A stretch of 63,313 nucleotides of DNA, filler included, from Candidatus Fermentibacterota bacterium (GTDB lineage Bacteria > JAFGKV01): assembly GCA_016928395.1 (NCBI GenBank). It is 7 parts of 7 records of this genome, joined end to end, with 100 filler letters (N's around TTAATTAATTAA, not from the genome) between each part and the next. Parts side by side here need not be neighbours in the genome. Positions count along the whole stretch, not along the records: positions 1 to 6,713 come from JAFGKV010000027.1; 6 more parts are not named here. The stretch is one strand, 5' to 3'. Both the position numbers and the translations under genes were made by a program. The notes beneath the pieces were generated by a model. It saw nothing but the letters and a program-made list of their open reading frames with translations. It made no database searches and was not told the DNA's origin. Of the stretch, positions 184 through 12,028 are shown one piece after another. How positions within the stretch are numbered: position 1 is the stretch's first letter; every line of letters starts with the position of its first letter.

Positions 184-1323
184 ATGATGATTGGCCCTGG
201 CACCAACGATCCAGAGTCCGCGGTCGCCGGCCTTGCGGCACGTTACCCGGAGAAGACCTCCTATCTCGGCCGCGTGTTCAACGACACCACGAACTCCTAC
301 AAGCTCATCTGGTTCCTGGCCATTCTCTCGCTGCTTCGTCGGAACGAGAGCACGTCATTCTCCCTGCCGGAGCTGTTCGCCGAGATGGGCACGATCGCCT
401 GGCACCCAGTGTGCCTCTACAGGCTCTCCCTCGGGCGGCAGGACAAACTCCAGGACGCGGTGCGAGAGATACGGTCTCGTTCGAGCCTCCCCGCCAACGC
501 AACGCCGGGTTCGGTGCGAACGTTCGTGCTGGAGTCCGAGGAGGCGGGCAGGAGCCTCGACTTCATACGGAACTACGTGCCGGCGCGTTTCCTCGCGCCG
601 TGGTTCGCCGAGGAACTTCGCGGCCACAAGGACTCCGTGCGCAACCGGCTCATAGCAGAACTGGCTGCGTCGAGCCAGCACACCTCGTCAGCCTGCCCCT
701 ACTGGCTCGGCGACGGGCGCATCCACCTCAACGAGTCGTGGCGGGCGTTCCTCCTCGAGAACATTGCGATGGTGGAGGCATTCGCCGAGTACCACTTCGC
801 CCACTACCTGCAGGTGCGGAATCCGAACGTGCCCGGCATCGTGAACAAGCTCCGCGCACCGGTTGCCCGGCAGCTCGGGGATGCGCGGCGATTCTGGAGG
901 CTGGTGCGTCACGGTTTTGAACAGTCCGGGAAGGCGGACCTCTTCGGGGATATCTATGCGGGACGCCCACTGGGCGACGACTTCGCGATTGACCATTTCC
1001 TGCCCTGGAGTTTCGCGCTCCACGACCTGCTCTGGAACCTCACGCCAGTCGAATCTGGAACCAACTCCAGCAAGAGCGATTCCCTTCCCGACATCGAGCT
1101 CTATCTGCCCCGGCTTGCCCGGCTGCACTTTGAGGTCGTCGAGACGATGCAGAGTCACCCAAGGCTGCTCGAAGACCACACCGACTGCTTCAAGCTCGAG
1201 CCCAGTGATCTTCTGGCTCTCGGGGAGGACGGACTGACAGCGAAGTACCGGGAAGTGGTGATCCCACAAGCCCAAATCGCGATGAATCAGGGCTTCCCGT
1301 CCGGGTGGGCGTTCAGGGAGTGA
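184..1323 (+). CDS. HNH endonuclease domain protein (putative defence/restriction nuclease)
   Basis: N-terminal TTNSYKLIWFLAIL motif; C-terminal IDHFLPWS...LWNLTPV...NSSKSD HNH-type signature. Confidence 0.85.
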   Translation: MMIGPGTNDPESAVAGLAARYPEKTSYLGRVFNDTTNSYKLIWFLAILSLLRRNESTSFSLPELFAEMGTIAWHPVCLYRLSLGRQDKLQDAVREIRSRSSLPANATPGSVRTFVLESEEAGRSLDFIRNYVPARFLAPWFAEELRGHKDSVRNRLIAELAASSQHTSSACPYWLGDGRIHLNESWRAFLLENIAMVEAFAEYHFAHYLQVRNPNVPGIVNKLRAPVARQLGDARRFWRLVRHGFEQSGKADLFGDIYAGRPLGDDFAIDHFLPWSFALHDLLWNLTPVESGTNSSKSDSLPDIELYLPRLARLHFEVVETMQSHPRLLEDHTDCFKLEPSDLLALGEDGLTAKYREVVIPQAQIAMNQGFPSGWAFRE

Positions 1324-1805
1324 GCCTCGACGTGACGACCTTCGGAGCAATCGAGCAAGACCTGATCCTTGCCGAGGATGACTTGTTCATCGTCGCGCGA
1401 GACAAGTTCCCCGTCTCGCCGGGACATACGCTGGTCATCGTGCGACGTGTCGTATCGCGATTTCTCGACCTGACTGCGGAGGAGAAGACCCGGCTGCTGC
1501 GGTGGATCGACTGGTCTGTCGCTCACCTGCAGAACACCCTGAATCCACGCCCCGACGGCTTCAACATCGGACTGAACGACGGGCCCGCAGCCGGCCAGAC
1601 CATCGCCCAGCTTCACGTCCACATCATCCCCCGCTACAGGGGTGACATCCCCGATCCCCGCGGCGGCGTCCGCCACGTGATCCCCCAGAAGGCCAAGTAT
1701 TGGTCGGATGACATGACCGCCGATCTCCATGATCCAGTTCACCTCAGAGAAGACCGCGTCAGTCTCAGACAGGACGGACAGCATGACCACGTTATTCGGA
1801 GTTGA
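1320..1805 (+). CDS. HIT family nucleotide hydrolase
   Basis: DKFPVSPGHTLVI, GFNIGLNDGPAAGQTIAQLHVHIIPRYRGD. GTG start overlaps the HNH stop (GTGA). Confidence 0.9.
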   Translation: MSLDVTTFGAIEQDLILAEDDLFIVARDKFPVSPGHTLVIVRRVVSRFLDLTAEEKTRLLRWIDWSVAHLQNTLNPRPDGFNIGLNDGPAAGQTIAQLHVHIIPRYRGDIPDPRGGVRHVIPQKAKYWSDDMTADLHDPVHLREDRVSLRQDGQHDHVIRS

Positions 1806-2484
1806 TTGTGCTACGGTCCCCAGGAAGACTGGCCTCGCCCTCGGAGAGTTGTCCGGGGAGATAGTACGAATCACCAAGTGTCGCACAGCCTCTGCCAAGG
1901 AGCCGCCCGCGGTTATTGCTGCGGATTGGCTCAGTACCCACGAGCGAGTGATTATCGCTATTGACGCCCCGCTGGGATGGCCAGTAGGGCTCCGGAAGGG
2001 TATTGGGGAGCACAGCGCGGGGGACCCTCTGTCAGTCTGTGCAGATGAGATGTTTCGCCGGGCCACGGACCTGGAGATCGAGGAAAGACTTGGAAAGAGA
2101 CCCCTGGAGGTTGGGGCAAACCTGATCGCCCGAACTGCTGCGGCCGCCCTCGGGTTTCTCGAAGAACTCCGCAACCGGACCGGCCGTGAGATCCCGATTG
2201 CCTGGGACCCCGATCAAGAGGATGCCTGGCGCGCCATTGAAGTATACCCTGCGGCTACTCGCATCGGGCACGGTGCACCTGATCGCGGAGGCAGCCTCAA
2301 CGGGCTGGGCAGGCTGCTGGATTGCACCGGTCTTCCAGCGAAGGCACTCAAGTCGAAAGACGCCGTCGACGCAACGGTGTGTGCGCTTGCGGCTGCCGAC
2401 TTCCTACGTGGCCGATCAGTCGCGCCCGTCGACGTTGACACTGCTCGTATTGAAGGCTGGATCTGGGCGCCGCGGGCAAGGTGA
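1783..2484 (+). CDS. DUF429 family predicted nuclease (RNase H-like fold)
   Basis: GVD, IAIDAPLGWP, RRATD, IEVYPAA, DAVDA, EGWIW motifs. Start at 1783 preferred; 1729 is possible. Confidence 0.85.
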   Translation: MTTLFGVDCATVPRKTGLALGELSGEIVRITKCRTASAKEPPAVIAADWLSTHERVIIAIDAPLGWPVGLRKGIGEHSAGDPLSVCADEMFRRATDLEIEERLGKRPLEVGANLIARTAAAALGFLEELRNRTGREIPIAWDPDQEDAWRAIEVYPAATRIGHGAPDRGGSLNGLGRLLDCTGLPAKALKSKDAVDATVCALAAADFLRGRSVAPVDVDTARIEGWIWAPRAR

Positions 2485-2497
2485 TCAGGGGCACGGC

Positions 2498-2930
2498 CTA
2501 TGGACTTAGGCAAAGCGCCAACTTACGGGGAACCGCAGGCGCCGATTCGGAAGTTGCCGAACGTGAATCTGCGCTGTGGAGCGGGCACGTAGCCGCTGCG
2601 CGGCAGCTCTCAGCCAGCCGACTCCTTTCCCTCTTCACCTCCCTACTTCTTCACCTCTTCGCCCCTTGACTTCTTCATCTCCTCACTCTTTACTCCTATC
2701 TCCTCACTCAAAGGACACCTTCACCATGGGGCCGTGATGGATACGATCGGATCGCACATCCTCCTCTCCCGCTCGAGGCGGCGATCCGGTGTACCCGCCG
2801 GGGGATTCGCCTGCTCATGCCACGTATTCGGCGAAGCCGGGGCCGATACTGCCCACTATTCTAAGGTTAGAATAGTGGGTTTCGGAGGCCATACTCGATC
2901 GGTAACTTACCATTTTACCAACGTCCCTAG
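2498..2930 (+). mobile_element. Complete ~430-bp non-coding MITE/REPIN-like element with imperfect terminal inverted repeats
   Basis: Left end CTATGGACTTAGGCAAAGCG aligns with CTAGGGACGTTGGTAAAATG at 6634. Right end CATTTTACCAACGTCCCTAG (2911-2930) is the exact reverse complement of 6634-6653. Contains a 13-bp-arm palindrome (2852-2879). Internal blocks are shared with 6670-6713 and 57363-57670. Confidence 0.75.
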
Positions 2931-2940
2931 TTCCACTGAA

Positions 2941-4248
2941 GTGGTCAATGTGCTGACCGTGGTCGCCAACGAGAGTTTCTCCGCGTTCGCAAACGGGCTC
3001 CAGCGAGAGTATGTTGAGGCTGGAGATGCCCCGCCGCCATTGCCCACCGATGCGAAGCGGCGAAGGCAAGCCAAGCGCAACGATCGGATCTACCTCGACG
3101 ATCCGCACTTCCAGCGTTTCTGGAGTCAGCTCAACCGGCTTGTTCGCTACCGCATCCGCGTCGTCACCCCGGAACTGGTTGACGCGTGTGTCAAAAGGCT
3201 CAACGACAGCCCCTTCCCGGTTCGCACCCTTGCCGTCGAGAAGGGCAGGATCAACCTCGGGGCGTACAAGGTACACGTTGATCGAGTTGAATCCGGAAAG
3301 GCCCAGCTCACGCTCACGCTGTTCGACGATGAGGGGGAGCCCGTCGTGCATCAGAGGCGTTTCAAACCGGGTGACGACATCGCAAGGGAGCTGCACGAGG
3401 ATCGTCTTCGACCTCTTGGAGCTCTCGATATTGAGCAGGCGGGGGGCTCCTACGACGTTGTCTTCACCTCTCTTGCCAGGCGCGTCAGCGAGGGTGAGGA
3501 GTGGGAGTTCACACCGACCGGATTCGGCGCTACCGCCCAGAAGCAGATCGTGCAGGTGGAGGCCCGCCGTTATCCGGTGTTCAACCTGATTGACCGCGCA
3601 TCACGGGATACAGGGATCACGCGGCCCACGGTCAATGCGATCTTCAAAGGCATGCGCAATGACAAGAAGCGCCTCATCTTCGAGAATCCGGAGGGCTTCG
3701 CCACCGTCTTCATCGGCGAACTCCGGAACGCGCTGGCCGACCACATCACCGAGCGAATCGAGTTTGTCGTTGACGCCGGGGTCGGGCGGTTCGACCGCGA
3801 TGAGCTTTTCCCGCAAGTATGTGAGCATCCCCAGAGGGAACTCATCGAAGCCGGCGAGCATGGGCTGTACGACTTGGTCCAGAAGGATTCAGAGGTCGAA
3901 CAGCACTACGTCGATGCGATCCGACATGAAGGGGACTCCATCGTTTTCTACTTCAAGTTCCCGCCGAAGTTCAAGATCGATCTTCCGCGGCTCATCGGCG
4001 ACTACAACCCCGACTGGGGCATCGCCCGGATCCACCGCAATGGCGACATGGAGGTCCGCACCTTCGTCCACGAAACCAAGGGCACAACGCAGATCGGCAA
4101 GCTCCGCTTCCCTCACGAGAAGCGGAAAGTACGGTGCGCCGAGAAGTACTTCGCCACCATCGGCGTCAACTACCAGACCATCGACCCGAGTCACGTCGGC
4201 GCCTGGTGGGCGACCTCCGCCGAACGTGGCGTACAGACTGAGATGTAG
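2941..4248 (+). pseudogene. res: 5'-truncated type III restriction-modification Res subunit (C-terminal endonuclease half)
   Basis: Begins at VNVLTVVANESF..F...LQRE, which follows helicase motif VI in Res proteins. Contains DSEVE, FKFPPKFKI, YNPDW...HETKG, EKRKVRCAEKYF. No helicase motifs upstream; the element occupies that position. Confidence 0.85.
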
Positions 4249-4262
4249 GGGAGAAGCGCGCC

Positions 4263-6116
4263 GTGGCGAAATCCTCTCCCACGCCCTCCAGCAGCGAAGA
4301 GCAGCCAACCAAACTGACTCCCTTCGCGCAGAGCCTGCTTGACGTCTTCGAAGACAGCCTCCGCTCAACCCTGCACTTCGGAGCCCTCGGCGAGCACCTG
4401 GTGTCGGAATCGGGGCTGGCGGTATCGCGTCTAGAATACGTACTCCGTCATTGCCATTGCCTCGCGGGGCTATCGAAGGAGAACCCCGGCATCGGCCTCT
4501 CATCACGCTGCAGATTCCCGAGCCAGGCCGGTGAGGGAGGACTGGCATGGAAGGGTTTGGGCCGCCTCTCCGGGCTCGAAGTATGCCAATCGTGGTCAGT
4601 GCTCCTGAACATCGGGCACCTTTTCGGTACCTTCGCGACTGAACGCGGTCTGCTCTTTCAGCTCGACAAGGACTTAGACGCGAGAGACGGATTCCTTGGA
4701 GGCGCCTGTTCCCACTTCGAGGGTCAGGCTGGCGATGTCCGAAAGATGGGAGAGGAGCTGCTAGACCGAGCACAGCTGTACCGATTCCACTATCTCCTTG
4801 CTCTTTGGCGGTTGAGAGCAGACAACAACCTGCCCGTGGACGACGCAATCCGCCGCAAGGCTGCACTGCTGGTACTTGCCTTCCTCTCTCCTCCAAGTGC
4901 AAAGCTGAGTCAACTGGCCCACATCTACCGGAAGACCCGAACGCTCGCATACCTTTCGCTTCATGCTGAGATCGGGGTAATGGAACCCCTCTGCAACGTG
5001 AAGGGGCTGCAGCGCTATCGGCAGCTCTTTCCGATCGACGCGATCCTGGAGGACAGCCTCGTCGAACCTGGACAATGGAACCTCATCGAGGCAATGGATC
5101 TCTCGGATTCGGAGCGGCTTTTCAATGCCCCCGATGCGGCAGGCATCGTCCTTGCTCACGCCAGGCAATTCCGGCAGTGGTGGGATCAGCGAAGGGCGAA
5201 TGGCTCTTCCTTCGGAGCTCTCATCGATGAGGCGTTCGGGAAGCCAGACGACTGGCCCGGGGCGCCTGCGCGAGAACTCCAGCACTTCGGGCGTATCTAC
5301 CTGCCGTCACGAGTGGGCTGGCTCGAAGAGGTCAGACTCTGGAAACATGACGAGAGTCAGAACAACCCATGGCGAGACTCTGACTTCCTCGTAACGCCAC
5401 CTCAGCAGAGATCTGAGGGACTCCATCTGGACCTGTACGCGGGGGCCTCTGGGATGAGTATCCAGACGGCCCGGCACATCACACTGCAGCTTTCTCGAGC
5501 CCTCTCATTCAGTCCAGAAGGGCAGTCAATGCGCAGGCTATGGATGACCACCGCGCGGTTCGTCGCCAAGGTCTTCCAGGGGTGCCTCAAGCCCGAATAT
5601 TCCCTGCGGCTCACGCCCCTCGAGGCTAGAGGAGATCACCTTGGGTACGGTACGGCCGGTTCGAGCTACGAACTGGCCCGTGGATTCGTCAAACGTTTCC
5701 TTGTAGAGTGCACCGATCCTCAGCGGACGATGGAGTTGAGACAACTTCTCGCCATCGGGGACAGGGATGAGTTCTGGCGGGTGCCTGCTCTCATCATGAT
5801 GGCACGGGCAGAAGTCATCAGCTCCGACGGGCAGTCGATAACCGATCTCGATGGGCTCCTTGGGAAGTTCCAGGGAGACTCGTTGGTCTGGACGGTTGTG
5901 GAGACCAAGAAATCGCCCACTCGAGGGGGCAAGACACAACTGCGGGATCGTGCAGATATCTACCTTGCTGTCGAACGAAGCTCCGAGGTCGAGGTGGTGA
6001 TCAATAGACAACACGTGCAATGGTTCACGGCCATATCCCCTGACCCAATCGCGTCAAGGCTATCCGGCGAGTGTGTGATTCCTGGGAGCACCGCGAAACG
6101 AGAGGAGGATCCATGA
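4263..6116 (+). CDS. Uncharacterised 617-aa protein: degenerate HD-domain-like N-terminus plus putative PD-(D/E)xK nuclease C-terminus
   Basis: Long ORF 14 nt after the res stop. SRLEY / LLNIGHLFGTFATE / RTLAYLSLH parallel HD dNTPase motifs; TDLDG...VETK at the C-terminus. The domain calls are by eye. Confidence 0.6.
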   Translation: MAKSSPTPSSSEEQPTKLTPFAQSLLDVFEDSLRSTLHFGALGEHLVSESGLAVSRLEYVLRHCHCLAGLSKENPGIGLSSRCRFPSQAGEGGLAWKGLGRLSGLEVCQSWSVLLNIGHLFGTFATERGLLFQLDKDLDARDGFLGGACSHFEGQAGDVRKMGEELLDRAQLYRFHYLLALWRLRADNNLPVDDAIRRKAALLVLAFLSPPSAKLSQLAHIYRKTRTLAYLSLHAEIGVMEPLCNVKGLQRYRQLFPIDAILEDSLVEPGQWNLIEAMDLSDSERLFNAPDAAGIVLAHARQFRQWWDQRRANGSSFGALIDEAFGKPDDWPGAPARELQHFGRIYLPSRVGWLEEVRLWKHDESQNNPWRDSDFLVTPPQQRSEGLHLDLYAGASGMSIQTARHITLQLSRALSFSPEGQSMRRLWMTTARFVAKVFQGCLKPEYSLRLTPLEARGDHLGYGTAGSSYELARGFVKRFLVECTDPQRTMELRQLLAIGDRDEFWRVPALIMMARAEVISSDGQSITDLDGLLGKFQGDSLVWTVVETKKSPTRGGKTQLRDRADIYLAVERSSEVEVVINRQHVQWFTAISPDPIASRLSGECVIPGSTAKREEDP

Positions 6117-6529
6117 CAGGCTACTGGTTGGTCAACACGAACGAGAGGCATCGGCCAGACACGAAGGCGCACATGCTCGCCAACAGGTGCGTGTGCGCCC
6201 AGTACGACCCCAAGGTTGACATCGATCGAATCTCCGCAGGCGATGTCGTCTTCATCTATGAGAACGTCGTGGGCATCATCGGCTACGGCATCGCAGATGG
6301 CCGAATCATCATCAGAGACTACAAAGGGGAGCGGAACGAACAGCACGAGATGCGCCTCGACCAGTTCGAGGTTCTCCCGCAACCGATCACCCCTTCACAG
6401 ATCAGCGCGATCTCCTGGAATCTCGATAGAGCAGGGGTCTTTTACGCCCGCACCGTCGTCCCCTTGCGCGATCTTGCGGGCGCCGAACTGTACCGCATCG
6501 CCAAGGAGCTGATACGATCGGGCGACTGA
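6113..6529 (+). CDS. EVE/PUA-like domain protein
   Basis: YWLVNTN ... ISAGDVVFIYENVVGIIGYG ... LPQPIT. RBS GAGGAGG; ATGA overlap with the upstream stop. Confidence 0.65.
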   Translation: MTGYWLVNTNERHRPDTKAHMLANRCVCAQYDPKVDIDRISAGDVVFIYENVVGIIGYGIADGRIIIRDYKGERNEQHEMRLDQFEVLPQPITPSQISAISWNLDRAGVFYARTVVPLRDLAGAELYRIAKELIRSGD

Positions 6530-6713: not shown

Positions 6714-6813
6714 NNNNNNNNNNNNNNNNNNNNNNNNNNNNNNNNNNNNNNNNNNNNTTAATTAATTAANNNNNNNNNNNNNNNNNNNNNNNNNNNNNNN
6801 NNNNNNNNNNNNN
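6714..6813. other. Artificial contig linker
   Basis: N-run with central TTAATTAATTAA (stops in all six frames), 100 nt. Confidence 0.99.
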
Positions 6814-7886
6814 ATCAAGTGAAGTTCTACCCCAATGGTGTTACATCCCCTGGGTATGAGATGAATCCGTTTCACCTGAGTGGAGCGGTGGACATCGTCG
6901 TCCGATGCTCGGACGAAATCACCGGCGGAGGGTCAAATGCCGGCGTATACACCGTTGGGTACGAGGTATTCGATGGCTCTGGCGCGAACATGGTCTCTGT
7001 TCGAGGACCTGTCTACAACCTCTACTTCGACTACTGGTGGTGGAACAACTACCTACCCTACATCTACACAGACCAGTCCAGTACTACTGTCTACTACTAT
7101 ATAGCCACGAACGGGCTTGGATACGATAGCTGGCTGGACGTTTCCACTCTTCCGAACGTCGTTGGCCCCTACAATGACGGATACTATACGATCAAGGTGT
7201 ACGCCGGAGATATCGATCAGGGGTTCGCCGAACACGCAGTAGACGTTCGAGTACCGGAACTTGGCGCGAACGAAGTGACCATGACCATTCAGAACAAGTT
7301 CCGGCGACCGCTCGGCCCGGATCTTGACGGCGGGGTTGTTGAGGTCAACGACACCCAGTACCCGTCACCCTTCCCGATGATCTGCTCACCCGGGCAGACC
7401 GTGGAACTCACGGCTGTTTCGCCACAGACCATCAATGGGAAACGATACATCTTCAACTACTGGAACGACGGGTATGACGAGCCGACGAGGGTGGTACAGG
7501 CAAGCGAGTCTACCTACACCGCCTACTTCTCTACCAGGGCTCATACCAAGCCTGCGGATAATGATGACGTGGACGTCACGGCAAGCATTCCACAAACGCC
7601 GGACCCGACGGTGTTCTCGCTTTCAGATGGCGCACCGAATCCATTTGGCACTGAGACCACTATCTCGTACTCACTGGAGAAGTGTGCACCAACCACAATC
7701 CGGCTCTACGACAGTTCCTGGCAACTGGTGAGGGTTCTTGTTGATGAGAACCGGTCGGCAGGGCGACACACAGTTTGCTGGGACGGTAGAGACGAGCAGG
7801 GGCGAGCCACCCCAAGCGGTGTGTACTTCTGTCGCATGGAGGCGGGCTCGTTCAGCGCGACATCAAGACTGGTGCTAGTCCGGTAA
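6814..7886 (+). CDS. Secreted protein with C-terminal FlgD-Ig/T9SS-like sorting domain (5' partial)
   Basis: Open from the contig edge; ends PNPFGTETTISY...WDGRDEQGRATPSGVYFCRM...RLVLVR. Confidence 0.85.
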
Positions 7887-8242
7887 CCACGGAATGCCCG
7901 GAGGACGGATGCCGGATGTGCGGACAAGGCCAAATCCCGCGCCGCGTGCGAGGGCCAACATGCCCTGTAAACACCGTCGTGCTGGCAGAGGATTGACCTC
8001 GGCGAGCTCTCCTTGGCTCGACGCAGCCGAGGTGAGCCTCGCGCGAGAATCACGTTGCAGGCGTCCTTCGGGCATCTTCGTGGCAGTCATCCCCTCCCCC
8101 TACCTGCCTGAATCCCTCTCCGGGCAGGTAGGGAGCTTGCCCGACGTCAACAGGATCTGGGGCACCAGGGAATTGCAGACAGGGCAACCGACCTTCTTGC
8201 GCGGCTATCGTCCGGATCCTGAACAGAACATCGGAGGAACCT

Positions 8243-10360
8243 ATGAGACCCATGCTTCACACCCTTATCCCCGCGGCAACAGCGATCGTGCACTGGTTCG
8301 TGCTTGCAGCAGCGGGGGTCGCGGCGCCCTCCACGACCGTCACGTTTGATGTCGATGACGTGAGCTTCTCTCAGATTGGCAACTACGACATCGCGAACGT
8401 CTCTGGATGTCACTTGCGCGGCGATCCGGGGCTTCCACTGCTTCCGTGCCGGTTTGTCAACCTCGTGATTCCGCGAAGCTGCTCGCCATCTCGAGTGCGG
8501 ATCACAGCCGACGTAAAGACGCGCCTGCCCGGCGAGTATCTCATCGCCCCGGCACAGCCTCTGCCGTCCGCTGAGGACGGATTCGCCCCCGCGGACTCCG
8601 TCGGGCCGGATGCGGATGTCTATCAGTCGACGTTGCCCTTTCCCGGAGATGCGGCTACACTCGATGGCGTCTCGATGAACTGGGGATGGAAGGTCTGTAC
8701 GGTGGTGGTATGGCCCCTTGAGTATGTTCCTGCCAAACGAGAATTGTGGTTGCACCAGAGCATCAAGATCAGTGTTGACCTGGCCCCGTCCACGGAGGCT
8801 GAGCAGGGCGTGTTGCCGCGTACGCCGGAGCAGCAGGAGGACTGGGCCAAGGAGCTGGAAGCATCGGTGGCGAACCCGCAAGACGTCTGGACCTTCGCCC
8901 CGGACTCGCGCAGTCCCGTGCCAGTGAGCCGACGGTGGGTTCTGATCCTCCCCGGTCATCCGGAGGCCCAGGGGCGCAATGGGTGGATCGACGCGCTGAT
9001 GCCGCTGGTGAATCACCGCCAGAGCCAGGGACTTGAGACGGAGACAAGATACGTGAAGACAATCACAACCGCCTCCGGGGAGACAGCGGTGCAGGCGATT
9101 CGGAACTACCTGATTGACCAACATAGCAATCACGGCGCCCGATGGGCGTGTCTCGTGGGAGACAACGAGATGATTCCCTGGACATACGACGGAGGGAACC
9201 CGAATAGACCCACAGATTGGTGCTACTGCGACTTGGATGGCACATGGCCATACGAAGCTGACTGGGCGCCCGAGTTGTGGGTCGGCAGGATACCCGCCAT
9301 CACCGCTCAGGAGGCCTCCAACTTCGTCTCGAAGGTTCTGGCGTACGAACAGAACCCCGGCAACGGTGACACATCGTACCTTACCAAGGCCTTCTACGAA
9401 TACGCCGATGGTGCCCAGGGCTTGGGAACCTGCGACTCCGTTATCGTGCACCAAGGTTACGGAGTACAGGATACGCTATGGAGAGAACTCCCGAGCTACT
9501 ATGACCCGCTCCCGTACTTCCCGTGGGACTATGACGTGGTCGCAACCCTGAGCAACGACCACTACAACCTCGTCACCGTCCATGCCCACGGCTACACCGA
9601 CTGCTATTGGCCGATATCGTACTGTGTGGGGGACAGCGCAATATCGGGGAGCTCTTTTGGCCTCGACGACATGGCGGCGCTCAGCAATACCGACTACTAC
9701 TTCTTCTGGTACTCGGCGTCGTGCATGCATGGCAAACTCGATGACACCATATACCCTCGATGCCTCGCGGAGGTTGCCACATGCATGAACCCGAACGGGG
9801 GGGCCATCGCATTCGCCGCAGACACCTGGACATCACGCGAGACCCCTTCCGCGGAACTGCAGTGCCATGCGTGGGATGTACTTTTTCCGAAGGGGCCTCT
9901 CGTTCCGAGGTACTGCAATCACGCCGGGTCGGTCGTGGCCTTGGCGAAGTACAGATCCGCCCAAGCCGGTGAATCGGACGACGAGACCCGTCGCGGCCAT
10001 GTCCTGTTCGGGGATCCTGCTACGGGGATCTGGACGCCCCAGTTCATGCCCGGACAGCCCAGACCGATGGTAGTCGGCGGGGAGCCACACGTTGGGGCTC
10101 TCCGAATCCTCTCATGGGGTCCGAACCCGGTGGTGGGGAGCCGAGGGAGTCTCCTCCTCTCACTCGACCGCCGCGCCGAGCTCCGCGTGGCAGCCTATGA
10201 TCTCATGGGGCGTCAGGTGAGGCAATTCCACAGTGGTGCGGCCACCCGGGGAGACCGCGCTCTATCGGTGGACTGGTCTGGTCTATCTCAAGGGACGTAT
10301 GTGCTTCGGGTGATTGCCGGCCAGGAGATGCTGACTAGGGAGGTTACGATACTTCGATAG
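8243..10360 (+). CDS. Gingipain-like cysteine peptidase (family C25) with propeptide and C-terminal sorting-like domain
   Basis: Signal peptide; GDPGLPLLP propeptide; LVGD, D..Y.DLDG, PELWVGRIP, AHG (His), ASC (Cys), GGAIAF, LFGDPA; GPNP...GTYVLRV C-terminal domain. Confidence 0.9.
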   Translation: MRPMLHTLIPAATAIVHWFVLAAAGVAAPSTTVTFDVDDVSFSQIGNYDIANVSGCHLRGDPGLPLLPCRFVNLVIPRSCSPSRVRITADVKTRLPGEYLIAPAQPLPSAEDGFAPADSVGPDADVYQSTLPFPGDAATLDGVSMNWGWKVCTVVVWPLEYVPAKRELWLHQSIKISVDLAPSTEAEQGVLPRTPEQQEDWAKELEASVANPQDVWTFAPDSRSPVPVSRRWVLILPGHPEAQGRNGWIDALMPLVNHRQSQGLETETRYVKTITTASGETAVQAIRNYLIDQHSNHGARWACLVGDNEMIPWTYDGGNPNRPTDWCYCDLDGTWPYEADWAPELWVGRIPAITAQEASNFVSKVLAYEQNPGNGDTSYLTKAFYEYADGAQGLGTCDSVIVHQGYGVQDTLWRELPSYYDPLPYFPWDYDVVATLSNDHYNLVTVHAHGYTDCYWPISYCVGDSAISGSSFGLDDMAALSNTDYYFFWYSASCMHGKLDDTIYPRCLAEVATCMNPNGGAIAFAADTWTSRETPSAELQCHAWDVLFPKGPLVPRYCNHAGSVVALAKYRSAQAGESDDETRRGHVLFGDPATGIWTPQFMPGQPRPMVVGGEPHVGALRILSWGPNPVVGSRGSLLLSLDRRAELRVAAYDLMGRQVRQFHSGAATRGDRALSVDWSGLSQGTYVLRVIAGQEMLTREVTILR

Positions 10361-10423
10361 GTGCGAGGGCAGGTCTCATCCGAGGCCATGTGATCGAACA
10401 ACTGTGAAGGAGGAAGCGGTTCA

Positions 10424-12028
10424 GTGGTACGACCTTGGAAACTCGTGGTTCTTGCATACGTTGTGATCGTTGCGGGTCCTCGCTTCGCGCTGGCAGACGA
10501 CAGTCTTCATACGCTGTTGACTATTGTGGGCGACAGCCCGGGGCAGCACCTGGGTCGGGCAATTTCAGGGGGTGGAGACATCAACGGAGATGGATTCGCG
10601 GATCTCGTGGTCGGTGACCCGAGCCGCAAGGAATGCAGGGTCTACCTCGGTGCTCCATCGCTTTCCTCCTCTCCCTCGCTGGTCATCGCCCAACCGGAGA
10701 CGTGCCCAGGGTTTCCTCCCAGCACCTATGGAGGCGTGGTATCTGGAGCTCGGGACATCAACGGTGACGGCTATGATGATCTTGTGGTGACGAACGCAGA
10801 ATGGCTCTACGTCACGGGGAAGGCCTACGTCTACTACGGCGGCGCCGAAGTGGACACTATTCCCGATGTGGCGATCGCCGGGTATGGGAGTTCCTGGCTC
10901 CACGAGTTCTGGTCGACCGATCTGCGCGGTCGAGTGGTCGGGGACATCAATGGGGATGGGTATGACGAACTGGCGTGCTTGGCCTACTACACCGTGGATA
11001 CTGGTGCATACGTCTACTTCGGAGGCGCACCGATGGACAGCGTGCACGACGTGGGGTGCCGTGGCCCTGGGTACCCGTATCTAGAGCTGGGGAGCGACAT
11101 CGCATCGGGCGACCTGAACGGCGACGGCTTCGGCGATCTGGTCGTCGGGGCATATGGGGCTGAGAACCATCCCGAGGTGCAGGATGCGGCGTGGGTCTAC
11201 TTCGGGGGCACGGAGGTGGACGAGACACCGGATGTGATCCTCTCTCCCTCGCGTGTCGCGCGTGACAACACGGTTCTCGTGCCAGGAGACCTCAACGGCG
11301 ATGGATTCGAGGACGTGGTGGTGGGGCCGTCAAGATACACAAACCCCACCGTGACTGATCCTGGGTGTGCCCACGTGTACTTCGGCTCGGCTCGCATGGA
11401 CAGCGTCGCGGACCTCGCCCTTGTGGGTGACATTGACGGAGGATGCCTTGCGCTGGCGGGAGGAGACATCAACGGAGACGGGTATGCAGACCTGATTGTC
11501 TGTGAGAGACCGGTGTGGCACCCCCCGTACACGGTGGGTCGATTGTCGGTGTACTTGGGCGGCGCGGACATGGACTCAATCCCCGCCGTGGTGATCACTG
11601 GTTCCGGCCGTTTCGGCGAGACAGTGACGTGGATCGGTGATATGAATGGCGATGGGTGGCCGGAGTTCGCCGTCTCGGATCCTGATGCGGCTGGCGGACC
11701 GGGCGAGATCTACATCTACACCTTGGCTCAAGTCGGCTCCCCCCCGCACCCCCTCCCTCTGCCCGACCCGGTCGCGCTCACGGTGGCCCCCAATCCAGGC
11801 GCCGGCCCATTCCATATCTCGTGGTCCTCGGCCGCCGTGAATCCCGGAGCAGTTGAGATAGTGGACATCAATGGCCGCGTGGTGCGAAGCCTCAGGGCGG
11901 GATCCGGCGGCGCCATTGTCTGGGATGGGTGCAATGGGGCAGGGATTCCTGTGCCCAGCGGCGTCTATGTCGTTCGCATGCAGGAAGGAGGCGTGGCGCA
12001 CTCAAGGAAGGTGGTGGTCGTACGCTGA
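10424..12028 (+). CDS. FG-GAP repeat (integrin-alpha-like beta-propeller) secreted protein with FlgD-like C-terminal domain
   Basis: Seven (G)D(I/L/M)NGDG repeats, signal peptide, PNP...WDG..PSGVY C-terminus; RBS AAGGAGG. Confidence 0.92.
   Translation: MVRPWKLVVLAYVVIVAGPRFALADDSLHTLLTIVGDSPGQHLGRAISGGGDINGDGFADLVVGDPSRKECRVYLGAPSLSSSPSLVIAQPETCPGFPPSTYGGVVSGARDINGDGYDDLVVTNAEWLYVTGKAYVYYGGAEVDTIPDVAIAGYGSSWLHEFWSTDLRGRVVGDINGDGYDELACLAYYTVDTGAYVYFGGAPMDSVHDVGCRGPGYPYLELGSDIASGDLNGDGFGDLVVGAYGAENHPEVQDAAWVYFGGTEVDETPDVILSPSRVARDNTVLVPGDLNGDGFEDVVVGPSRYTNPTVTDPGCAHVYFGSARMDSVADLALVGDIDGGCLALAGGDINGDGYADLIVCERPVWHPPYTVGRLSVYLGGADMDSIPAVVITGSGRFGETVTWIGDMNGDGWPEFAVSDPDAAGGPGEIYIYTLAQVGSPPHPLPLPDPVALTVAPNPGAGPFHISWSSAAVNPGAVEIVDINGRVVRSLRAGSGGAIVWDGCNGAGIPVPSGVYVVRMQEGGVAHSRKVVVVR

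Follow-up and report, generated by a model that had tools for sequence, protein, structure and literature searches.

A conserved but rare, unnamed protein family with a predicted SAMHD1-type fold lacking the canonical metal ligands and a probable PD-(D/E)xK nuclease domain: a possible single-gene sensor-effector in bacterial defence

Introduction

What use would a protein have for the fold of a deoxynucleoside triphosphate (dNTP) triphosphohydrolase once the metal ligands are gone and a nuclease has been placed on the same chain? The question is raised by a gene encoding 617 amino acids (aa) from Candidatus Fermentibacterota bacterium JAFGKV01 (assembly GCA_016928395.1), which lies in the first contig of the window, that is, of the whole 63,313-nucleotide stretch of DNA analyzed. 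To our knowledge, SAMHD1-fold enzymes in immunity are known only as dNTP-destroying effectors. The reading put forward in this study is that the 617-aa gene is a single-chain sensor-effector nuclease used in defence and belongs to a rare, unnamed family; the chances that this is correct are about even.

The initial annotation had proposed a two-gene defence module, in which a catalytically dead HD-like domain fused to a PD-(D/E)xK nuclease is coupled to a downstream EVE-like reader of 138 aa. Both open reading frames (ORFs), the motifs quoted for them, and the overlap of the two genes at ATGA are all present in the sequence, and the interpretation as a whole is partly supported. The gene is more probably a self-contained immunity gene than one half of such a module.

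The N-terminal domain

The AlphaFold2 model of the 617-aa protein, built on an alignment of 117 sequences, has a predicted local distance difference test score (pLDDT) of 90.7 and a predicted template modelling score (pTM) of 0.90. All of the top matches listed by Foldseek are SAMHD1 or bacterial HD dNTPases, the best with E 3.1e-3. When the Foldseek candidates were aligned with VIA-align, 139 of 1000 chains reached Z>=8; against human SAMHD1 (3u1n_D) the alignment has Z 15.7, a root-mean-square deviation of 3.7 A, and 333 aligned residues, and runs from 10 to 431 in the model and from 117 to 583 in SAMHD1. When 48,161 representative chains were scanned in an unbiased way, 12 had Z>=8, and all 12 are dNTP triphosphohydrolases, including the Thermus thermophilus dNTPase (15.8), CloA (14.8), Aquifex O67745 (14.8), SAMHD1 (14.8), and EF1143 (14.6), although mostly helical models can score a Z of about 14 from arrangement alone. 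The first chain below this group is a generic HD protein with Z 7.6. Because the top chains belong to one family, are set apart by a wide gap in score, and are matched over the whole core, true kinship to the dNTP triphosphohydrolases is the better account of these scores, and residues ~10-431 are predicted to adopt the complete SAMHD1/dGTPase catalytic-core fold.

The HD superfamily is defined by the metal ligands H...HD...D. Three motifs of the 617-aa protein stand in the order in which these ligands would be expected: SRLEY (residues 55-59), LLNIGHLFGTFATE (114-127), and RTLAYLSLH (226-234). In motif I, H38-L-G...R56-x-x-Y59 aligns to Q-L-G...R-x-E-H of a fungal SAMHD1 (9mr6) and of EF1143 (2o6i), with weak HMMER E values of 0.16 and 1.2; this register fits the predicted fold and weakly suggests that a tyrosine, Y59, stands at the place expected for the first metal-binding His. 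At this position Tyr is found in 110 of the 117 family members and His in one. Motif II sits where LLHDIGHxPFxH would be expected, and the model has a helix at 104-116, a loop, and a second helix at 124-136. The counterpart of the HD dyad would be L115/N116 according to a low-probability hhalign alignment to Escherichia coli Dgt, or N116/I117 in the register of the initial annotation; in the alignment, position 115 is Leu in 68 members and His in 5, and position 116 is Asn in 94 and Ser in 17. Motif III takes the place of D-x-x-D-Y-x-x-R-D and lies within the model helix 213-236. From the order of the motifs and its position in this helix, R226 would stand at the place of the last metal-binding Asp. 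Y230 is Tyr in 97 of the 117 members, and position 234 is divided between H (59), D (48), and Q (10).

No Asp is among the N-domain residues conserved in at least 90% of members, so a canonical HD metal site cannot be present, and since the H..HD..D ligands are lost, hydrolysis of dNTPs is not expected. Other residues in the domain are well conserved, including H38, H119, E127, H234, and H299, with several of these His and Glu residues at 90% or more among 66 closer members. The strong conservation in just these three motifs suggests that what has been preserved is a binding pocket and not a site of metal-dependent hydrolysis.

Much of what the initial annotation had claimed for this domain holds. 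An HD-like domain was placed at residues ~1-230; the fold is borne out by AlphaFold, Foldseek, and VIA-align as that of SAMHD1 and the dGTPases, and its extent is not, as confinement to residues 1-230 was rejected on a structural match that spans 10-431. The claim that the metal ligands are replaced agrees with the column counts of the 117-member alignment, in which the canonical H..HD..D is not conserved.

The C-terminal domain

The classical PD-(D/E)xK core has the order alpha-beta-beta-beta-alpha-beta, in which D marks the second strand and the third strand carries ExK. In the 617-aa protein, E491, D530, E547, and K549 are invariant in all 66 of the closer family members. DSSP assignments from the model place E491 in a helix (486-501), followed by strands at 509-512/515-520 and 525-529 and then D530, a strand (540-549) that ends with E547-x-K549, a helix (556-567), and strands at 577-591; this secondary structure fits the classical core. 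Searching with the whole model gave weak matches to Can1 (6sce_A, Z 5.3, 121 residues, model 401..595), Can2 (8bao_B, Z 5.0, 119 residues), and VC1899 (1xmx_A, Z 5.0, 113 residues), single domains within long models being prone to low scores in such a search. These three are the only non-HD matches of domain size (113-121 residues). An Atlas feature search with residues 440-600 returned NERD, Mrr_cat, Mrr_cat_2, Card1_endonuc, and PDDEXK_3 with scores of 0.79-0.85; all of the named matches belong to the PD-(D/E)xK clan and are taken as a lead. The C-terminal domain is likely a PD-(D/E)xK nuclease, as had been claimed from an arrangement given as TDLDG-x11-VETK; the spacer is in fact x14.

The family and its distribution

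The 617-aa protein belongs to a conserved but rare, unnamed family. A word-indexed search found seven relatives at 37-43% identity. In an exhaustive phmmer search of 1.84 billion cluster representatives, 183 passed E<=1e-3, 91 passed E<=1e-10, and 63 passed E<=1e-30. The protein has no match in Pfam, NCBIfam, or PADLOC, and a Pfam scan of the 66 closer members one by one returned only noise; the family is invisible to these resources and so is annotated merely as hypothetical protein. PADLOC-DB v2.0.0 holds no family matching either the 617-aa or the 138-aa protein at E<=1, its coverage not extending to systems described after 2023, and within that version the locus is, as had been supposed, not an already named system.

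Two alignments were used, one of 117 members in a wider set and one of the 66 closer members. Nearly invariant in the wider alignment are G40, R56, Y59, G118, H119, L120, T123, F124, E127, R226, E491, D530, G531, E547, and K549, and in the N-domain H38, Q109, and R128 as well; in the closer set, R226, G40, and Q109 are invariant along with the four putative nuclease residues. The counts of 117 are R 112 at position 56, H 112 at 119, and R 116 at 226 in the N-domain, and E 115 at 491, D 114 at 530, E 112 at 547, and K 113 at 549 in the nuclease. Conservation of this kind across 117 sequences indicates that the motifs are not due to chance.

Pattern scans yielded seven loci from species genomes, mostly metagenome-assembled genomes of the Myxococcota type, and 16 from metagenomes. 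The gene was carried by two of 301 genomes sampled from the phylum of one carrier. A search for TIGR01353 dGTPase in four related genomes found none.

Several of the relatives are found in or beside defence loci, as had been predicted. One member (L002) has PglZ, BrxD, and BrxHI of bacteriophage exclusion (BREX) upstream and a PDC-M27-like PLD and SNF2 pair downstream; another (L008) has the same PLD and SNF2 pair, in convergent orientation. A third (L004) lies between hsdR and hsdM/hsdS of a type I restriction-modification (R-M) locus. The neighbours elsewhere include an HsdS-like protein (L010), an N6-methylase-like protein (L016 and L017, which are identical loci), the C-terminus of a type IIG R-M protein (L020), and a DUF4357 protein (L007). 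The 617-aa gene itself shares its contig with the Res fragment and with the HNH, HIT, and PDC-S44 genes. Taken together, the family is probably a defensive accessory gene that usually stands alone.

The loci L002 (11695-18172) and L008 (6692-12851) share a trio made up of a ~440-aa protein, a PLD-like protein resembling ZacB/PDC-M27B, and an SNF2 helicase resembling PDC-M27C. In L002 the stop of the family member overlaps the first start of this trio, and the family member and trio may form a recurrent association. The family gene is split into at least two ORFs in L003 (5332-6326), L006 (9689-11215), L019, and L023, which suggests frequent decay or assembly errors.

Proposed mechanism and the evidence against it

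If the 617-aa protein is a sensor and effector in one chain, then its N-terminal part would be a dead HD domain that does not hydrolyze dNTPs and keeps the nucleotide pocket, perhaps along with SAMHD1-like allosteric or oligomerization sites. The pocket would sense a ligand of the (d)NTP type or an infection-induced shift in the nucleotide pool, and binding of the ligand, or assembly driven by it, would activate the PD-(D/E)xK deoxyribonuclease (DNase) to cut invading or cellular DNA. The gene would act alone, with the translationally coupled small EVE/PUA-like protein and the upstream Res fragment as lineage-specific additions rather than parts of the core. The pocket, ligand, gating, and target are all inferred here. 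A more specific version, in which the metal-free SAMHD1 pocket has been turned into the receptor of a DNase gated by dNTPs or phage-modified dNTPs, and the EVE-like reader has been recruited as an accessory at this locus, is a tentative possibility.

A number of results weigh against the sensor-effector reading. The kinship to HD proteins rests on predicted structure, and sequence methods give no support: neither Pfam HD (PF01966) or HD_assoc nor the NCBIfam dGTPase families match the 617-aa protein, Pfam HD families match none of the 66 closer members at E<=0.5, and hhalign to E. coli Dgt has a probability of 0.1-0.2%, whether Dgt is used alone or with 15 homologs, all of which are at least 84% identical. 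The HMMER matches in the Protein Data Bank (PDB) cover one motif only, a sub-profile of motifs II-III matched only a designed repeat protein in the PDB, and the Foldseek E value is never 1e-3 or below. The equivalences proposed for motifs II and III are putative, and the conserved H38, H119, E127, H234, and H299 could build a different active site. For the nuclease, solved structures match weakly (Z ~5), and among the 66 members just one has a match to a nuclease family in Pfam (PDDEXK_9, E 0.1). Four of the related loci have no defence neighbours: UbiD is found at L003, an insertion-sequence-type transposase and a histidine kinase at L005, GyrA at L011, and a helix-turn-helix (HTH) M78 protein and a P-type ATPase at L012. 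The other loci either have too little sequence for an assessment or gave no matches. The family is also absent from the viral contigs covered by the pattern scan and from the plasmids and phages covered by tblastn.

Alternative explanations

An HD domain without metal could also be a scaffold for binding nucleic acid or for oligomerization. Single-stranded RNA and DNA are bound by SAMHD1 at its allosteric sites, and the scaffold would in a similar way bring the nuclease to a structure in DNA or RNA. SAMHD1 bound to oligonucleotides or single-stranded RNA (6u6z, 6u6x, 8tdv, 8d9j) is among the best structural matches, the allosteric sites of SAMHD1 can be occupied by oligonucleotides according to PMC7854603, and the basic residues R56, R128, R183, and R226 are conserved. 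The near-invariant residues nevertheless fall, on the proposed mapping, in the motifs of the HD catalytic pocket and not in surface patches, and the scaffold explanation is unlikely.

The two-gene module of the initial annotation, where the EVE-like protein would recognize modified DNA and either pass it to the pseudo-HD nuclease or gate the nuclease, depends on the 138-aa ORF. This ORF starts within the stop of the 617-aa ORF (ATGA, 6113-6116) and has a good candidate ribosome-binding site, GAGAGGAGGA, at 6100-6109. The motifs YWLVNTN, GDVVFIY, and GIIGYG are all within it, in an order resembling that of EVE. In Atlas an EVE cluster has a feature score of 0.95 to it, the pTM of the Atlas's own model being 0.91, which is a lead only, and its structure is listed as resembling the N-domains of NucS_C, NOV_C/EVE, and HNH_2 proteins. 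The ORF has no Pfam match at E<=1, EVE (PF01878) included; a plasmid homolog (L031:1992-2597) has a sub-threshold Pfam EVE match with E 0.004 and 17.6 bits against a cut-off of 23. Two genuine EVE proteins align collinearly with it in hhalign, at a probability of ~1% that is not significant, and AlphaFold2 with an alignment of just three sequences gave pLDDT 50, the best VIA match having Z 3.7 on that poor model. A divergent EVE/PUA-like domain is plausible, and the EVE identity that had been claimed for the ORF is kept as a lead.

The distribution of the small ORF does not follow that of the nuclease. It has one homolog cluster of like length, P0010 (50% identity), with member P0155, and tblastn found no relative in any of the 23 loci of the 617-aa family (best E 1.8), for which reason it is not a conserved partner of the family; the claim of a module is not supported. 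At least 500 bp of downstream sequence is available in 14 of these loci, and at least 7 of them have a neighbouring gene that runs in the convergent direction. Relatives of the small ORF occur without the nuclease on 36 plasmids, mostly enterobacterial and of 2.7-2.9 kb, at 30-40% identity. In the plasmid homologs examined (L029:989-1624, L030:5743-6393, L031:1992-2597) the domain forms the C-terminal part of proteins of 201-216 aa, whose N-terminus of ~85 residues appears by eye to be ribbon-helix-helix (RHH)-like, and an Atlas row among the relatives is named CopG. An obligate two-gene module is, on this evidence, quite improbable. On some tiny plasmids the homolog of the small ORF is one of just three or four genes.

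The family may also have no part in immunity and be a nuclease of repair, recombination, or a mobile element that lands in variable regions. The transposase and the HTH-M78 regulator among the neighbours (L005 and L012) and the broken copies in L003, L006, L019, and L023 are consistent with this. The repeated location inside or beside R-M, BREX, and PLD/SNF2 loci argues for defence instead, and the presence in two of 301 genomes of one phylum and the lack of copies on the plasmids, phages, and viral contigs searched also make a function outside immunity rather unlikely.

That the N-domain has kept enzymatic activity at a rewired site (H38, H119, E127, H/D234, H299), for example as a nucleotide or phosphodiester hydrolase joined to a DNase, is very unlikely, for although several His and Glu residues are at least 90% conserved in the 66 members and 48 of the 117 have D at position 234, there is no conserved Asp and no H..HD..D, an invariant Arg stands at the expected metal ligand, and no HD family is significant in the 66 members.

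Gene layout

The window is a concatenation of at least seven contigs, with joints at positions 6758, 14138, 18311, 44882, 50849, and 57907 that consist of N...TTAATTAATTAA...N, the linker having stops in all six frames. Because the concatenation is artificial, genes that flank a joint are not genomic neighbours. The features of the contig that carries the 617-aa gene are listed in Table 1; all of its genes are on the + strand, and the contig ends 184 bp past the stop of the small ORF. Scans for promoters and terminators gave results at chance level.

Table 1. Features of the contig carrying the 617-aa gene; positions count along the window
Feature	Position	Strand	Basis or remark
HNH_4 protein	184-1323	+	Pfam/PADLOC scans
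HIT protein	1305-1805	+	Weak ThsC match
DUF429 protein, matching PADLOC candidate PDC-S44	1729-2484	+	
504-aa ORF, type III Res C-terminal endonuclease half, without helicase	2734-4248	+	Pfam RE_endonuc, PADLOC REase_III
617-aa ORF, predicted SAMHD1-fold pseudo-HD domain and probable PD-(D/E)xK nuclease	4263-6116	+	GTG start
Residues ~10-431, predicted SAMHD1/dGTPase-type HD core fold without canonical metal ligands	4290-5555	+	
Motif I, R56-L-E-Y59	4428-4439	+	HMMER alignment, column counts
Motif II, L114-LNIGHLFGTFAT-E127	4602-4643	+	Sequence, model secondary structure, hhalign, column counts
Motif III, R226-TLAYLSL-H234	4938-4964	+	Column counts, model helix 213-236
Residues ~440-600, probable PD-(D/E)xK nuclease domain	5580-6062	+	Invariant residues, model, fold search
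Putative catalytic codon E491	5733-5735	+	
Putative catalytic codon D530	5850-5852	+	
Putative catalytic codons E547-T-K549	5901-5909	+	
138-aa ORF, possible divergent EVE/PUA-like domain	6113-6529	+	ATG start
Artificial contig joint, N run with TTAATTAATTAA	6714-6813	.	First contig stops at 6713

The 617-aa ORF has a likely ribosome-binding site, GGGAGAAG, at 4249-4256, and the 504-aa ORF ends 14 bp 5' of the gene, the two probably being co-transcribed. The upstream ORF had been taken for a type III res gene and is a C-terminal fragment of one: Pfam RE_endonuc matches residues 376-483 (2e-25), and PADLOC REase_III matches at positions 764-976 of 989. Neither a helicase nor a mod gene is found on the contig (1-6713), and the 23 related loci gave no relative of the fragment (best E 0.24). 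Because it lacks a helicase, the ORF was rejected as a functional type III Res; the stand-alone endonuclease half may be a leftover or a solo nuclease that has been domesticated.

On the same contig, the overlapping HNH_4, HIT, and DUF429 genes may form a separate candidate defence cluster. On the next contig, at 6819-12028, are genes for three large proteins that look secreted, one of which has FG-GAP-like repeats; they end in similar C-terminal segments of ~80 residues, which we take to resemble secretion-sorting or FlgD-Ig-like domains.

Comparison with known systems

The locus has features in common with several known systems. The 504-aa ORF shares the C-terminal endonuclease domain of type III R-M Res proteins, but it lacks the helicase half and no Mod gene is found with it. 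Like the EVE/PUA readers of type IV restriction, the 138-aa protein is small and beta-rich, has the series YWL...GD.VF.Y...GI.G, and adjoins a nuclease; it differs in not being a conserved partner of that nuclease, and it lacks the W-x-G-V-R-N type motif that is carried by housekeeping EVE proteins (L025/L026). The main text of a 2020 survey of EVE domains (PMC7641849) makes no mention of SAMHD1, dGTPase, or HD domains, and that of a 2026 survey of BREX (PMC12839542) describes no fusion of SAMHD1 or dGTPase to a nuclease. Term searches of the literature gave no account of a protein that joins a SAMHD1- or dGTPase-like domain to a nuclease of the restriction type, though supplements might list one and systems named since 2023 could be missed.

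In overall plan, the 617-aa protein is similar to the ligand-activated nucleases Can1, Can2, and Card1, single chains in which the N-terminal domain binds a ligand and a PD-(D/E)xK effector comes after it, and Can1 and Can2 are the best solved matches of its C-terminal domain (Z 5.0-5.3, weak). The sensor of these proteins is CARF, whereas that of the 617-aa protein would be a domain of the HD fold; in addition, neither a cyclase nor a CRISPR locus is near the 617-aa gene, and the protein has no Card1_endonuc match in Pfam. If the proposed reading is correct, then the defence nucleases that join a sensor to PD-(D/E)xK would gain a new type of input domain, and the family would provide a compact single-gene system for studying how infected cells read changes in the nucleotide pool.

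The SAMHD1/dGTPase enzymes are similar in the whole core fold and in having three motifs in the same order, and some of them, including the anti-phage dGTPases and CloA, are regulated by nucleotides and used in antiviral defence. The 617-aa protein differs in lacking the H..HD..D ligands and any match to the family at the level of sequence, and in the fused C-terminal nuclease, which is not described for the matched solved chains. According to the Clover preprint, the CloA protein of that system is active as a dGTPase, under the control of dTTP and p3diT; it sets a precedent in bacterial defence for proteins of the SAMHD1 fold that are controlled by nucleotides. If the N-terminal domain of the 617-aa protein is a receptor, then the SAMHD1 fold would have been reused as a sensor after losing its metal site and gaining a nuclease, and a dNTP-gated DNase of this kind would be the nuclease counterpart of the dNTP-depleting defences, dGTPase and Clover.

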